Positions 33,786-45,452 are shown, counted from the stretch's first letter. The stretch: DNA of 64,000 nt from Promethearchaeota archaeon (GCA_016840165.1 JAEOSU010000076.1:64001-128000); one strand, 5' to 3'. The notes: a model not told the origin generated them from the sequence alone. Translations and numbers: made by a program.

Positions 33786-34196
33786 ATGAATTTTGAAGAT
33801 GAGGAGGAAGAATTCGATGAAGAATTCGATGAAGAATTTGATGAAGATCTGGACGAAGATTTGGATGAAGAGAGAGATTTTGAATTAAAAAAACCAACTC
33901 CAGAAGTTCTTGCAACTAAAACTCCAAAAGGTACCATTAGCTCGGAAGCAAAAAAGATTTCCGTATATCTAATGTCAACAATAGGGCCGGGGGAAAAGAA
34001 ACAAAAATTATTAATATATACTGGATATCAGATTAAGGATATCAAGGAAACAGTGGCTAATATATTTGGTTTAGACCCCTCTGATTTTCATTTATCTACA
34101 GGAGGAGTCACAATGGAGGAGGGATTAACGCTAAATGATTATAATGTTAATGATGGAGATGATATTTTGTTAATTCCGGCTAGCACTGCTGGCTAA
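33786..34196 (+). CDS. Ubiquitin-like protein 1 (acidic N-tail, mature C-terminus -PASTAG)
   Basis: Beta-grasp pattern IKDIKETVA..FHLSTGG..LNDYNVNDGDDILLIP ending Ala-Gly-stop; lies in the E1/E2/JAMM/RING locus. Confidence 0.85.
   Translation: MNFEDEEEEFDEEFDEEFDEDLDEDLDEERDFELKKPTPEVLATKTPKGTISSEAKKISVYLMSTIGPGEKKQKLLIYTGYQIKDIKETVANIFGLDPSDFHLSTGGVTMEEGLTLNDYNVNDGDDILLIPASTAG
33807..33866 (+). repeat. 12-bp tandem repeat x5 encoding (EEFD)3(EDLD)2
   Basis: gaagaattcgat gaagaattcgat gaagaatttgat gaagatctggac gaagatttggat. Confidence 0.85.
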
Positions 34197-36042: not shown

Positions 36043-36378
36043 ATGAGTTTTGATAATGATTTTGATGAGGAATTGGAACCATTAAAGTCTAAAACGCCTA
36101 CAAGTAAAACACCTTCAGCAGGAAAGAAACTGACTCTATATTTTATGTCAACTATCGGTCCTGGTGAAAAGAAAGAAAAGTTAACCGTAAATGATGCTAA
36201 TCAAGTCAGTGATATTAAAGAAACCTTAGGAAATTTATACGGTCTTGACCCTGATGAATTTCATTTATCATCTGGTGGAGTTACAATGGATGAAAGTAAT
36301 CAATTAAAAGATTATAACGTAAATGATGGAGACGACATTCTTTTAATTCCTGCGAGTACGGCGGGTAGACTTATATAA
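36043..36378 (+). CDS. Ubiquitin-like protein 2 (pro-form, -PASTAG|RLI)
   Basis: Close paralog of Ubl1 (MSTIGPGEKK, DYNVNDGDDILLIPASTAG) with a 3-aa extension; directly upstream of E1. ATG 36043 (GTG 36034 in the track). Confidence 0.87.
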   Translation: MSFDNDFDEELEPLKSKTPTSKTPSAGKKLTLYFMSTIGPGEKKEKLTVNDANQVSDIKETLGNLYGLDPDEFHLSSGGVTMDESNQLKDYNVNDGDDILLIPASTAGRLI

Positions 36379-36400
36379 TTTTCTATATAATTTATAATAA

Positions 36401-36432
36401 GAAGGCTTTAGTCCTTCATTTATTTTTTTTTT
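36401..36432 (+). terminator. Short hairpin plus T10 tract between Ubl2 and E1
   Basis: GAAGG-ctttagt-CCTTC followed by T10 at 36423-36432. Confidence 0.4.
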
Positions 36433-36445
36433 ATTAATAATTAAG

Positions 36446-37764: not shown

Positions 37765-38292
37765 TTGAGTTTAAGAAGTAGTCGTATTTCTCGAGATTTT
37801 GCGGGTTTAAAAAAGATGCTTAAGAATGGAACCATGGTTCAATTAAAACCATTTAATCCAAAAAAAAAAAGTATTGATCATTTAGCTATTACTATCAGAG
37901 GTCCCAAAGGAACAGCTTATGCAGGGGGTCTTTTTAAATTAGAAATGAAATTCCCTGCTCAATATCCTAAGCAGCCTCCATTTGTGAGACTCCATACACC
38001 AATTTGGCATCCAAATTTTTGGCCTAAACCAAGTGAATATAAAGGACAAAGAAATATCTGTTTAGCATTAGTTGATCCTTCTTTAGTTGGTAAAAAAGGA
38101 GGTTGGAGTCCTTCGAAAACAGCAGTCACTATAGTGCAAGCAATAATTGCTATGTTAAATACACGCGGAAAATATGTTAATCCAACAGATGTATTTAATA
38201 AAAAAGCAGCAATCGAAATGATAAAGGATCAAAAATTCTTCGAGAAAAAAGTTAAAAACCTAGTAAAGAAGTATGCAAAAGAAAAGTGGTGA
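37765..38292 (+). CDS. Ubiquitin-conjugating enzyme E2 (UBC fold)
   Basis: GPKGTAYAGGLFKL..FPAQYP.QPP, TPIWHPN, NICL, WSPS. Confidence 0.94.
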   Translation: MSLRSSRISRDFAGLKKMLKNGTMVQLKPFNPKKKSIDHLAITIRGPKGTAYAGGLFKLEMKFPAQYPKQPPFVRLHTPIWHPNFWPKPSEYKGQRNICLALVDPSLVGKKGGWSPSKTAVTIVQAIIAMLNTRGKYVNPTDVFNKKAAIEMIKDQKFFEKKVKNLVKKYAKEKW

Positions 38293-38299
38293 AAATAAT

Positions 38300-39106
38300 A
38301 TGAAAAATGATGAAATTCCTGATGATCCAATTAGAGAAGCCATTAAACAAAAAATAAAAAACAAAATCAAAAAAGAATTACTTAAAGAAATATATTCGGA
38401 ATTACAATTAGAAGAAGAAATTACAAACGAGATAACCACTGAAATAATTAGTGATCCTTTATTAGAGCATTCCGAGATCAATAAAGCTAATCTTGAACCG
38501 ATTCCTTCAGAGATCGTAGAAACTTCTGCTAGTAATGGTAAATTTAAAGCACCTATAGCTATAAATGTAAAATCCATTCTAAAAATTGCCAGTCACGCAT
38601 TAAAATATGCTCATTCAAAAATCCCAAGAGAAGAATGGGTTGAGGTTATTGGCTTACTTGCTGGAACATTTGATAAAATTCATAACGTTTTATATATTGA
38701 AGATGTTTATCCAATGGGACATGGTAATGCTGTGTATGCGGAAATTAAAGATTATAAAAATTATGTAAGAGCTTTTAAAGATATCAAAAAAAGTAGATTG
38801 TTTATATGTGGCTGGTATCACTCTCATCCATCCTATGGATGCTTTATGTCTAGAGAAGATTTAGGTACCCAATCGCGGTATCAAACATTATGGGATAAAG
38901 CAATAGCACTTGTAATTGATCCTTATCAGATAAATGGAAAATCATTGGGTTTTGAAATTTATCGTGCGAATTTTAAAAAACGAGAGTGGTTTTCTGTACC
39001 TTTTGAGATTAATGGAAATTTAGATGTGGGAATGTTACCTGAAATTTTGGATTTTATGAACCCAATTATAGAGGGGAAGGCTGCTTATTTAGAATATGAT
39101 GAATAA
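38300..39106 (+). CDS. JAMM/MPN+ isopeptidase (Rpn11/CSN5-like)
   Basis: EVIGLL, GWYHSHPSYGCFMSREDL, ALVIDP. ATG 38300 preferred over 38273, which overlaps E2. Confidence 0.93.
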   Translation: MKNDEIPDDPIREAIKQKIKNKIKKELLKEIYSELQLEEEITNEITTEIISDPLLEHSEINKANLEPIPSEIVETSASNGKFKAPIAINVKSILKIASHALKYAHSKIPREEWVEVIGLLAGTFDKIHNVLYIEDVYPMGHGNAVYAEIKDYKNYVRAFKDIKKSRLFICGWYHSHPSYGCFMSREDLGTQSRYQTLWDKAIALVIDPYQINGKSLGFEIYRANFKKREWFSVPFEINGNLDVGMLPEILDFMNPIIEGKAAYLEYDE

Positions 39107-39126: not shown

Positions 39127-40266
39127 ATGGTAAAAAAGAAAAATTTGATAATCCTTCTTTTTGTCTTAATTGGTTTTGTCCATGGGTTGATCTCAATTTC
39201 ATTAAATATTTTTCTAACTTGGGTATTTATCGGTTTGTGGATATTTTTCATAATAAAAATTTTCGAAAACATAAAACAACATCGCGAATTTAATTCACCT
39301 TATAATACGGCATTTTTTGTTATTCTTCCTTTATTTATTGGGATCTTTTATTCTATGTGGGGCTACTATACGAATTTATTTGGTGAAAATCTCTTTATGA
39401 ACTCCAATATCTATTTTAGTTTATGGAGCTTAATTTTTGGATTTCCATTTGTTTTATATGGATCTTATTCATTATATCGTTGCTTTAAAAAGTATAATGT
39501 GATCTATTTTGGGAGAAGAGCTGTAAAGGCTAAAGTGGTTGGATATCTACTATCATTCTCAATAATTTTTGGTATTATTCTTTATTGGATAATTTTTTAC
39601 TCTATTATTGAGTTTTTTAATTATTTATTAATTCCTTTACATTTCTCTTTAGATTTAAATCTTTTAATCATTTTTATATTGACTATTCTAATTCTTATTT
39701 TATTTGGATTTTTAAATCCTCAAAGACGATTATCTCCTTTAACTCGAGAATATATAGCACAGCGTACTCGAAGAATTAATGCTCTCACAAGACCTAGTAT
39801 TCAAAATCAGAGAGTAAAGACAACTAACCGATCAACTTCTCCCTCAACTAGAACAGTGACCCGATCAACTACTACTTCCTATAGATCCTCAAGGATCACT
39901 CCAAAATCTAAAAGCCATGCGAGGAGAACAACAAGAACCACTGAAACTAAAAAGACAAAAACTAATCTAAAAATTCGAAATATAAATGCTTATAAGCCAA
40001 AAGCGGCATTTCTGACAGAAGAAGATTTCAAATGCATTTTCTGTTTTAATTTGCCAAAATTTCCCGAAGATAAAGGTAGAGGGATCATTTTATGCCCTAA
40101 TTGTAGATATCCTTCCCACGCAGATGAGTTTAAAGACTGGTTAAAAACTTCAAATTTATGTTCACGTTGTAGCGCACCCATTCCCTCTAGCTTTAGAAGA
40201 AATCCAAGAATTATTAGTATAAAAAATTATATTTCTATCTATAAACAAATTTTAAAAAAAACATAA
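39127..40266 (+). CDS. Polytopic membrane protein with C-terminal RING-like domain (candidate E3 ligase)
   Basis: About 6 TM segments, an S/T/R-rich linker, then CIFC-x16-CPNC-x4-H-x2-E-x3-W-x6-CSRC. Confidence 0.78.
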   Translation: MVKKKNLIILLFVLIGFVHGLISISLNIFLTWVFIGLWIFFIIKIFENIKQHREFNSPYNTAFFVILPLFIGIFYSMWGYYTNLFGENLFMNSNIYFSLWSLIFGFPFVLYGSYSLYRCFKKYNVIYFGRRAVKAKVVGYLLSFSIIFGIILYWIIFYSIIEFFNYLLIPLHFSLDLNLLIIFILTILILILFGFLNPQRRLSPLTREYIAQRTRRINALTRPSIQNQRVKTTNRSTSPSTRTVTRSTTTSYRSSRITPKSKSHARRTTRTTETKKTKTNLKIRNINAYKPKAAFLTEEDFKCIFCFNLPKFPEDKGRGIILCPNCRYPSHADEFKDWLKTSNLCSRCSAPIPSSFRRNPRIISIKNYISIYKQILKKT

Positions 40267-44327: not shown

Positions 44328-45452
44328 ATGGCAGCAGCATATAACCATATTGATAAAAAAGTAAAGAAAATTCTCAAGAAAGCTGAAAATTCTGAGGAGA
44401 TAACCAAAGATGAGGCTTTGGAATTATTAAAAGTAACCGGAAATGAATTTTTTGCTCTACAAAATACTGCGAATAACCTTTGTTTTCAGAAAAAAAATAA
44501 TGTGGTAACCTTTGTTATAAATCGTAATATTAATTTTACAAACATTTGTTATCAGGGATGCCGTTTTTGTTCCTTTAGCGTTCCTAATAAAGAAAAAGAT
44601 GCTTTTCTTTTAAGCATTGAAGAGATTCATGATAAAACTGTGCAAGCATATCATTCAGGATGTACTGAAATATGCATTCAAGGGGGTATAAATCCAGATT
44701 TAAATTTTGAATACTATTTAGATATCTTAAGTATTGTTAAAGAAGTTAATAGGAATCTCCATATTCATGCCTTTTCTCCCCAGGAAATTTTCTACATGGC
44801 GAAATTGCATGGTACTAGCATTGAAGAAACTTTAAAGGAACTTAAGAAAGCTGGATTAGATTCAGTTCCTGGAACTGCAGCAGAAATTCTTGTTGATAAA
44901 GTAAGAAAGATTATTTGTCCAAAGAAAATATCAACCGCACAATGGATTAATATTATAAAGACAGCCCATAATCTGGACATTCCAACCACTTCAACGATAA
45001 TGTATGGCCATATTGAGGATCTTATAGATCGTGTAGAGCATTTACACATTTTAAGAGAAATTCAAAAACAAACTTCTGGGTTCACTGAATTTGTACCACT
45101 TCCTTTTGTAAACGAAAATCCCATATTATCTAAATTACCTAACTTTCCCTTAAGACTACATTATGGTATGGGAGATCTAAAGTTATTTTGTGTTGCAAGG
45201 CTATTTTTTAATAATTATATAGACAATATTCAATGTTCGTGGGTAAAATTAGGTCCTAAGATGGCTCAGGTTTCGTTAAACTATGGTGTAAATGATTTCT
45301 CCGGCACACTGATGGAAGAAAATATATCAAAGTCAGCGGGAGCAGATTATGGAGAGTATTTATCACCTCAAGAAATAACATCTATAATAAAAACAGCAGG
45401 AAAAAAACCTGCTCAAAGAGATACTTTGTATAAAATTTTAAAATTTTATTAA
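44328..45452 (+). CDS. cofH: FO synthase subunit 2
   Basis: NRNINFTNICYQGCRFC, HAFSPQE, PGTAAEIL, MYGHIE, FVPLPF, SWVKLG, GTLMEENI. Confidence 0.93.
   Translation: MAAAYNHIDKKVKKILKKAENSEEITKDEALELLKVTGNEFFALQNTANNLCFQKKNNVVTFVINRNINFTNICYQGCRFCSFSVPNKEKDAFLLSIEEIHDKTVQAYHSGCTEICIQGGINPDLNFEYYLDILSIVKEVNRNLHIHAFSPQEIFYMAKLHGTSIEETLKELKKAGLDSVPGTAAEILVDKVRKIICPKKISTAQWINIIKTAHNLDIPTTSTIMYGHIEDLIDRVEHLHILREIQKQTSGFTEFVPLPFVNENPILSKLPNFPLRLHYGMGDLKLFCVARLFFNNYIDNIQCSWVKLGPKMAQVSLNYGVNDFSGTLMEENISKSAGADYGEYLSPQEITSIIKTAGKKPAQRDTLYKILKFY

Follow-up and report, generated by a model that had tools for sequence, protein, structure and literature searches.

The window that we analyzed is a 64,000-nucleotide stretch of a Promethearchaeota (Lokiarchaeia-type Asgard) metagenome-assembled genome (MAG; GCA_016840165.1, JAEOSU010000076.1:64001-128000). 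It contains two paralogous soluble ubiquitin-like modifiers, Ubl1 and Ubl2, and Ubl2 is the first gene of a co-oriented operon that continues with an E1, an E2, an Rpn11-like JAMM metalloprotease, and a membrane RING protein (Table 1). Upstream of this operon lies a run of genes for a nucleotidyltransferase, a coiled-coil protein, Ubl1, a membrane-anchored UBL protein, a double winged-helix protein, and a 66-amino-acid protein. The entire gene order is retained in about 55 of the 80 related loci compared, nearly all of which come from Promethearchaeota MAGs. E1 is the next gene after Ubl2 in 63 of these 80 loci, and the linkage of Ubl2 to a ThiF-type E1 and a UQ_con E2 is syntenic in 63 loci. 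The membrane protein that closes the operon is syntenic in about 50 loci, and a profile search returned no Pfam match for it.

Table 1 Features of the modifier locus (positions counted from the first nucleotide of the window)
Feature	Position	Strand	Basis or remark
Ubl1, paralogous modifier, 136 aa, longer acidic repeat arm	33786-34196	+	Gly136 directly before TAA
Membrane-anchored third UBL-domain protein, 260 aa	34242-35024	-	Pfam ubiquitin, 31.7 bits
Ubl2, operon-linked ubiquitin-like modifier precursor, 111 aa from ATG	36043-36378	+	PF00240 match
Ubl2 Gly108 codon, GGT	36364-36366	+	
RLI tail codons, AGA CTT ATA	36367-36375	+	TAA stop at 36376-36378
Conserved AT-rich 3' element TAGACTTATATAATTTTCTATATAATTTATAATA, overlapping the tail codons	36366-36399	+	Alignment of operon loci
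Short GC stem (GAAGG, 36401-36405; CCTTC, 36413-36417), then T-rich run	36401-36436	+	Conserved position
E1-like activating enzyme, ThiF family, 410 aa	36446-37678	+	PF00899, E = 1.2e-59
E2-like conjugating enzyme, UQ_con, 175 aa	37765-38292	+	PF00179, E = 9.8e-26
Rpn11-like JAMM/MPN+ metalloprotease, 277 aa, candidate trimming and deconjugating enzyme	38273-39106	+	Pfam JAB, E = 2.3e-13
Polytopic membrane protein with C-terminal Cys/His finger, candidate E3, last operon gene	39127-40266	+	ORF

The third UBL protein of the locus is found between Ubl1 and Ubl2 in about 55 loci. It ends in ...ALIPRNKK, without a terminal Gly, and therefore cannot be conjugated. Two smaller observations concern the junction of Ubl2 and E1. 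Where most E1 orthologs open with ATG-GTG-ATA, the window reads AAG-GTG-ATA, which leaves the GTG as the start of its E1. In one MAG (L008:82-3531), the two genes are about 3.1 kb apart, compared with a spacer of about 90 nucleotides elsewhere, which suggests an insertion into the conserved spacer.

Seventeen related loci (L028, L034, L036, L041, L044, L051, and 11 more) encode a soluble Ala-Gly Ubl with no other operon gene in the flanks examined. Several of them come from genomes that also have an operon locus, and they are probably extra copies; short tails are present on some and absent from others (IF, CF, IY). A search of the window's own genome found no such operon-less copy. The same genome does hold a fourth ubiquitin-family open frame (L084:1486-1746, minus strand; G000 contig C4, about 44359-44619), which ends in ...VMATQAGG-A-stop. 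It is of the Gly-Gly type with a one-residue tail, the second tailed Ubl of this organism, and it may use a noncanonical start, as the open frame contains no ATG, GTG, or TTG.

Ubl1 and Ubl2 share their C-terminal residues, and Ubl2 carries three more

Ubl2 is laid out as a disordered, acidic/Lys-Thr-Pro N-terminal arm followed by a beta-grasp core. It matches the Pfam ubiquitin family (PF00240) at 29.7 bits against a cut-off of 25.4, and 830 homologs were found, the nearest named ones being from Promethearchaeota. Ubl1 falls slightly below the same cut-off, at 24.5 bits, yet is 57% identical to Ubl2 overall (BLASTP, E = 6e-46).

Ubl1 ends in ...DYNVNDGDDILLIPASTAG (an LLIPASTAG end), with TAA immediately after. 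Ubl2 repeats the last 19 residues of Ubl1 through ...LLIPASTAG and then adds Arg-Leu-Ile before its own TAA. An earlier note, made from the sequence of the window, had reported both the shared 19 residues and the added RLI; the open reading frames, their translations, and a comparison of codons confirm them. Over the shared residues, 11 of 19 codons differ between the two genes (12 nucleotides), and every change is synonymous, from which it follows that the identity is kept by selection on the protein. Recent gene conversion and a duplicated assembly were considered as sources of the identical residues and rejected, given that 11 of 19 codons differ.

The di-glycine end found in ubiquitin, NEDD8, SUMO, SAMP, and CsUb is absent from this family, which always ends in Ala-Gly (S-T/I/V-A-G). 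Judged by its sequences, the Ubl1/Ubl2 family is a Ubl of its own type and not ubiquitin proper.

The Ala-Gly end is invariant and the tails that follow it vary

The earlier note had asked whether orthologs keep AG followed by variable tails. They do: across 120 protein clusters and 63 operon-linked and 55 upstream loci, we find an invariant AG and hypervariable tails. Among the 120 closest clusters, the end ...IP(A/S)S(T/S)AG is practically invariant, and its Gly is present in all 120 as well as at all loci. After AG, 35 clusters have nothing, 38 have YF, 10 have RLI, and 7 have YI; KLI, CFE, K, IF, and many singletons also occur. Overall, 0 to 7 unconserved residues follow AG, in 42 different tails (about 120 protein clusters plus 63 genomes). 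RLI/KLI/NLI and YF are each retained across many sequences at 84 to 97% identity, which could reflect selection on the peptide instead of on the underlying DNA. Tailed and tail-less orthologs are otherwise indistinguishable.

The paralogs were separated by genomic context, with the operon-linked copy taken as the Ubl2 position and the upstream copy as the Ubl1 position. At the Ubl2 position, 41 of the 63 operon loci are tail-less and 22 are tailed, with nine tail types of one to four residues. At the Ubl1 position, 44 of 55 loci are tail-less (a count that includes two loci listed with read-through text), and the remaining 11 carry 11 different tails of two to seven residues. Per genome (n = 55), both modifiers are mature in 33, Ubl1 is mature and Ubl2 tailed in 11, both are tailed in 8, and the reverse arrangement is found in 3. 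On a tree of E1 plus E2 from 58 genomes, tail presence changes at least seven times at Ubl2 and at least eight times at Ubl1; these counts are minima, taken from a quick tree in which several forks are unresolved.

The window genome and two others, L004 and L005, form one clade (support, 100), and RLI follows the Ubl2 Gly in each of them. At Ubl1, the window genome has no tail, L004 has IVSIL, and L005 has KINRNI. The two nearest relatives thus have tails on both paralogs, and the combination of a ready Ubl1 with a pro-form Ubl2 is peculiar to the window genome within this small clade. Identity to L004 and L005 is 91 to 95% for Ubl2 versus 85 to 87% for Ubl1, and no UBL gene of the locus is better conserved than Ubl2.

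In distant relatives, AG-type Ubl genes also occur in tandem, head to tail: P0121 (L088:59-1177) has three units and P0122 (L090:205-957) has two, both known from contigs of about 1.2 kb, and P0145 is a further case. An acidic arm and a STAG end recur in every unit, and VL or IY follows the final one; cutting after AG would be needed if these units are used. In other relatives (P0125, P0128, P0129, P0131, P0139, and others), an Ala-Gly Ubl domain forms the C terminus of a protein of 270 to 565 residues that ends exactly at AG.

The tail of Ubl2 reads into a conserved 3' element

The alignment of the operon loci ran from the codons for Ala-Gly through the spacer up to E1. The Gly codon is followed by TA(A/G)ACTTATAT-AAnTTTCTTCATAAAnTATAATA, then by a short GC stem, a T-run, and the start of E1. 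The AT-rich element, 34 nucleotides long with two TATA-like motifs, is conserved in position and sequence in 63 of 63 operon loci aligned (46 re-aligned), whether it is translated or not, and its 22-nucleotide core occurs once in the window. In most genomes, the GC stem reads AAGGGC...GCCCTT and is followed by T7-10. A structured RNA in the Ubl2-E1 spacer was considered and rejected: RNAalifold gave three pairs only, with no compensatory changes, and the window spacer folds no better than its shuffles (z = -0.54). The spacer (36366-36436) is nearly identical from base to base across the 63 loci. Judged from its sequence, it might terminate or attenuate transcription behind the modifier gene, serve as the promoter of E1, or bind the syntenic winged-helix protein.

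Where no tail is present, the element opens with the stop codon (GGN TAA/TAG ACT TAT ATA A...). The window, L004, and L005 lack one base at the wobble position of the Gly codon, so that GGN TAG ACT TAT ATA A is matched by GGT AGA CTT ATA TAA and the T of the old stop completes GGT. The tail bases align base for base with the noncoding TAG/TAA-ACTTATATAA that follows the Gly codon at the stop of tail-less orthologs, one base shorter, and RLI is the +1-frame translation of the conserved noncoding element TAGACTTATATAA. Other tails have similarly simple derivations. Both RLI and KLI are the flank TAR-ACTTATATAA read after a 1-nucleotide loss, KLI coming from the TAA version; YF corresponds to TAA-to-TAC plus TAT-to-TAA two codons on; and TFK is the YF type with an additional 1-nucleotide loss. 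At the other paralog, L005, L009, and L015 have AAA (Lys) where the window's Ubl1 has TAA, a change of one base, and read on for four to six more residues. Because the tail comes from translating part of an element whose conservation is just as high in genomes that leave it untranslated, the conservation of RLI and YF within subclades is explained without selection on the peptide.

The first residue after the cleavage site (P1') in the 42 tails is mostly K, Y, L, S, Q, C, or R, which are one-step sense derivatives of stop codons, and is never D, E, P, G, or W. The missing D, E, and P are at most a hint of selection for cleavability, as the tails are not independent. When stop loss was simulated in the 41 tail-less Ubl2 genes, the median number of extra codons was 27 after substitution, 7 after a +1 shift, and 9 after a +2 shift; the observed maxima are 4 residues at Ubl2 and 7 at Ubl1. 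From these comparisons, only short extensions seem to survive, and longer ones seem to be selected against.

The operon JAMM is the best candidate for trimming Ubl2

E1 enzymes adenylate the free carboxylate of a terminal Gly. By analogy with characterized systems, the RLI tail of Ubl2 would have to go before E1 can activate it. As the most strongly conserved UBL gene of the three and the first gene of the operon, Ubl2 is surely used, and we infer that a peptidase acting after the Gly must operate on it.

The nearest precedent is from Caldiarchaeum, in which the JAMM protease CsRpn11 cuts the 9-residue tail of pro-ubiquitin exactly after the Gly and the uncut precursor is refractory to E1 (PMC5654768; PMC6043591). 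CsRpn11 is specific for its own ubiquitin, its processing of a CsUb G77A variant with an AG end is strongly slowed, and residues after the cleavage site alter its rate in a range from faster to fully blocked (PMC6043591). Given the slowing by an AG end, the JAMM of the window must be adapted to an Ala-Gly substrate.

The JAMM encoded in the operon is most probably the enzyme that cuts Ubl2 after Gly108, the best candidate by its sequence and in a model of the complex; it would also take the tag off targets. Among proteins of solved structure, it is closest to Caldiarchaeum CsRpn11 (6fjv/6fju, E = 4.5e-15), followed by eukaryotic Rpn11/PSMD14 and then CSN5, and it matches PF01398 (JAB) at 50.4 bits versus 19.1 bits for PF14464 (Prok-JAB), the latter under its cut-off. 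On these matches, it is closer to Rpn11/CSN5 than to the SAMP-type prokaryotic JAMMs. The predicted catalytic residues E124, H183, H185, S193, and D196 (E...HSH-x7-S-xx-D) are invariant in 32 orthologs. The gene is co-linear with Ubl2, E1, and E2, and usually with the RING gene too, in 53 loci, a count of loci where tblastn recovered most of the JAMM and one that includes L007, which has an in-frame stop.

In a model of JAMM residues 96 to 277 with Zn and Ubl2 residues 28 to 111, the complex scored 0.66 versus 0.26 for the best control, although like complexes have been solved and the score may reflect likeness only. Of 80 solved complexes, 58 attain this mark, as do 2 of 110 mismatched pairs. 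Between runs, contacts agreed at 95% or more, and the partner pLDDT was at least 82 (82 to 84). The model places Ubl2 residues 100 to 110 against E124, H183, H185, and S193-D196, a likeness to the already solved CsRpn11-CsUb and Rpn11-ubiquitin complexes and not a proof.

Outside the catalytic domain, the JAMM has an N terminus of about 95 residues that is charged and helical-looking (IKQKIKxKIKKELLxEIYxEL), and its acidic C-terminal YLEYDE is invariant in all 32 orthologs. In L007 (L007:5330-6148; MAG ABR11), the JAMM gene has a TGT-to-TGA nonsense codon just before the GWYHSHP motif; the gene is intact in the sister genome L008. Both Ubls of L007 are tail-less, and the nonsense codon could stem from a sequencing error or mark a genuine loss.

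The earlier note had proposed that Ubl2 is a precursor from which RLI has to be trimmed and that the linked JAMM matures it. Both proposals hold up: the invariant AG and hypervariable tails argue for the first, and homology to CsRpn11, the motif found in 32 of 32 orthologs, linkage in more than 50 genomes, and the complex model make the second the most likely assignment. It is unlikely, though still worth weighing, that some other peptidase does the trimming, either another JAB/MPN protein or an unrelated carboxypeptidase, and that the operon JAMM serves as a deconjugase only. The genome has at least five PF01398 (JAB/MPN) matches plus further PF14464 (Prok-JAB) matches, a three-residue tail could fall to nibbling by an exopeptidase, and the L007 JAMM carries its nonsense codon. 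That codon, however, may be a sequencing error and sits in a genome whose modifiers need no trimming of a tail, while linkage in more than 50 genomes, the placement of the Gly108-Arg109 region at the metal site of the complex model, and the ability of CsRpn11 to do both jobs on its own ubiquitin (PMC6043591) favor the operon JAMM.

The tail is probably a drifting, trimmed-off extension

We consider it probable that the tail is an ordinary extension that is trimmed off by the JAMM and drifts by stop codon shifts, and not a designed switch. In this lineage, a single base would have dropped out where the Gly codon meets the stop; the resulting frame shift would carry translation three codons into the AT-rich 3' element and so add Arg-Leu-Ile. 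The tail would then be cut after Gly108 before adenylation by E1, as in Caldiarchaeum, most probably by the Rpn11-like JAMM of the same operon. If a post-Gly peptidase is always present, selection holds the stop of either paralog in place only weakly, and its position drifts. Short tails would come and go almost neutrally, with a constitutive peptidase buffering the drift of the stop, and the state with a mature Ubl1 and a pro-form Ubl2 would be one transient combination and not a conserved regulatory design.

The earlier note had gone further and proposed that RLI gates Ubl2 while Ubl1 is always ready. Under such regulated gating, RLI would be a selected propeptide, Ubl2 would stay inactive until the JAMM is switched on, and a constitutively ready Ubl1 would complete a division of labor. 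Several observations fit this proposal: the window genome and 10 others share the configuration, RLI is common to the whole near clade, long tails appear to be selected against, and the dependence of the CsRpn11 rate on the residues after the site means that a tail can tune maturation (PMC6043591). The comparative data nevertheless speak against it, and we regard gating as improbable. All four combinations of mature and tailed ends occur, with both-mature the commonest; tail presence has flipped at least seven to eight times per paralog; the two closest relatives are tailed at Ubl1 too; the tail sequence is accounted for by the shifted-frame reading of a noncoding element that is equally conserved where it is untranslated; and no regulator of the JAMM is evident. 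A zymogen-like system would keep the pro-state in orthologs of the gated paralog and lack it at the ungated one, and the loci do not show this pattern. The claim of a gate is thus not upheld.

A weaker form of tuning deserves mention. By analogy with CsRpn11, the sequence of the tail could in principle matter kinetically for trimming, and it is conceivable, if a long shot, that tail residues act as a heritable rate-setter, with fixed short tails tuning the entry of a modifier into the conjugatable pool relative to its tail-less paralog. If this were true, stop slippage into the 3' element would give evolution an inexpensive way to adjust an archaeal ubiquitin-like system.

It is very unlikely that the tail is simply kept, leaving Ubl2 nonconjugatable in this clade, whether as a protein that acts noncovalently or as a decaying gene. 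While RLI is present, the Gly carboxylate is unavailable, and a nonconjugatable UBL paralog (the one ending in RNKK) is already found in the locus. Against this, Ubl2 is the most conserved of the trio, purifying selection acts on its AG end and the 19 residues before it, the E1-E2-JAMM operon still begins with it, and nothing but the tail distinguishes tailed from tail-less orthologs.

That a one-base assembly or sequencing error at the Gly/stop junction made a false tail has almost no probability left: the tail does differ from tail-less orthologs by a single base, and the window does come from a metagenome-assembled genome, but identical tail codons occur in the independent assemblies L004 and L005, RLI is found in 10 metagenomic protein clusters from several sources, and runs from several studies contain 58 to 76% of the stretch's 31-mers (two RNA runs contain 0.04 to 0.07 of its words).

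Comparison with known systems

Eukaryotic ubiquitin is made from precursors, which are polyubiquitin genes with extra terminal residues and fusions of ubiquitin to ribosomal proteins. These precursors are processed by Cys-protease deubiquitinases, with Rpn11 confined to the proteasome lid. The likeness to the family described here lies in a conserved reactive Gly, a nonconserved extension, and its removal by a deubiquitinase. The tandem genes of distant relatives, which end in STAG-VL or STAG-IY, resemble polyubiquitin genes; the window genes are single units.

The closest archaeal counterpart is the CsUb precursor and CsRpn11 of Caldiarchaeum subterraneum (PMC5654768; PMC6043591; PDB 6FJU, 6FJV, 6FNN, 6FNO). 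In that organism, the source of the first characterized operon of this type, a modifier, E1, E2, RING protein, and Rpn11-like JAMM likewise form an operon, the modifier gene adds a short extension beyond the reactive Gly, and the JAMM has the same catalytic motif. The two systems differ in that CsUb has Gly-Gly plus nine residues whereas the Loki family, known from sequence, has Ala-Gly plus zero to seven; the Loki locus also has two soluble paralogs and a membrane-anchored one, long N-terminal arms, and a membrane-embedded RING. In the Helarchaeia, a tailed Asgard ubiquitin has been noted, and the authors removed the tail for an active modifier. That ubiquitin likewise has a short tail beyond the reactive glycine and an operon with E1, E2, and a RING E3; it differs in being of the Gly-Gly type and ESCRT-linked, and a comparison of paralogs or of tail turnover has not been described for it.

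The closest analogue of one mature and one pro-form paralog is the ATG8 family. Arabidopsis ATG8h and ATG8i end at Gly, without the extension that other ATG8s lose to ATG4 (PMC7301642), so that within the same genome some paralogs are tailed and need a protease and others are Gly-ended. The family itself, the Cys protease ATG4, the E1 and E2, and the lipid target are unrelated, and the likeness is one of logic and not of descent. In the literature on Asgard archaea, the ubiquitin-ESCRT paper (PMC9192718) has nothing on the tails of Loki modifiers, a search on Lokiarchaeota E1, E2, and the C-terminal glycine returned general reviews only, and one on PDB entries 8HM1-3 ("Putative ubiquitin") found nothing relevant.

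Implications for Asgard modifier systems

These comparisons caution that a difference between paralogs in a single genome should not be taken as regulation. They also bear on experimental work: for biochemistry, the modifiers must be expressed truncated at the Gly, and proteomic searches should seek Ala-Gly-ended remnants, not di-glycine.

That ubiquitin-type tags are made as precursors was already known for both archaea and eukaryotes. What the present loci add is a natural experiment spread over dozens of genomes, in which an extension has been gained, altered, and lost by one-base events while the Ala-Gly has stayed unchanged. Together, these sequences provide indirect but strong evidence that Loki-type Asgard archaea have a constitutive post-glycine peptidase that tolerates almost any short tail.
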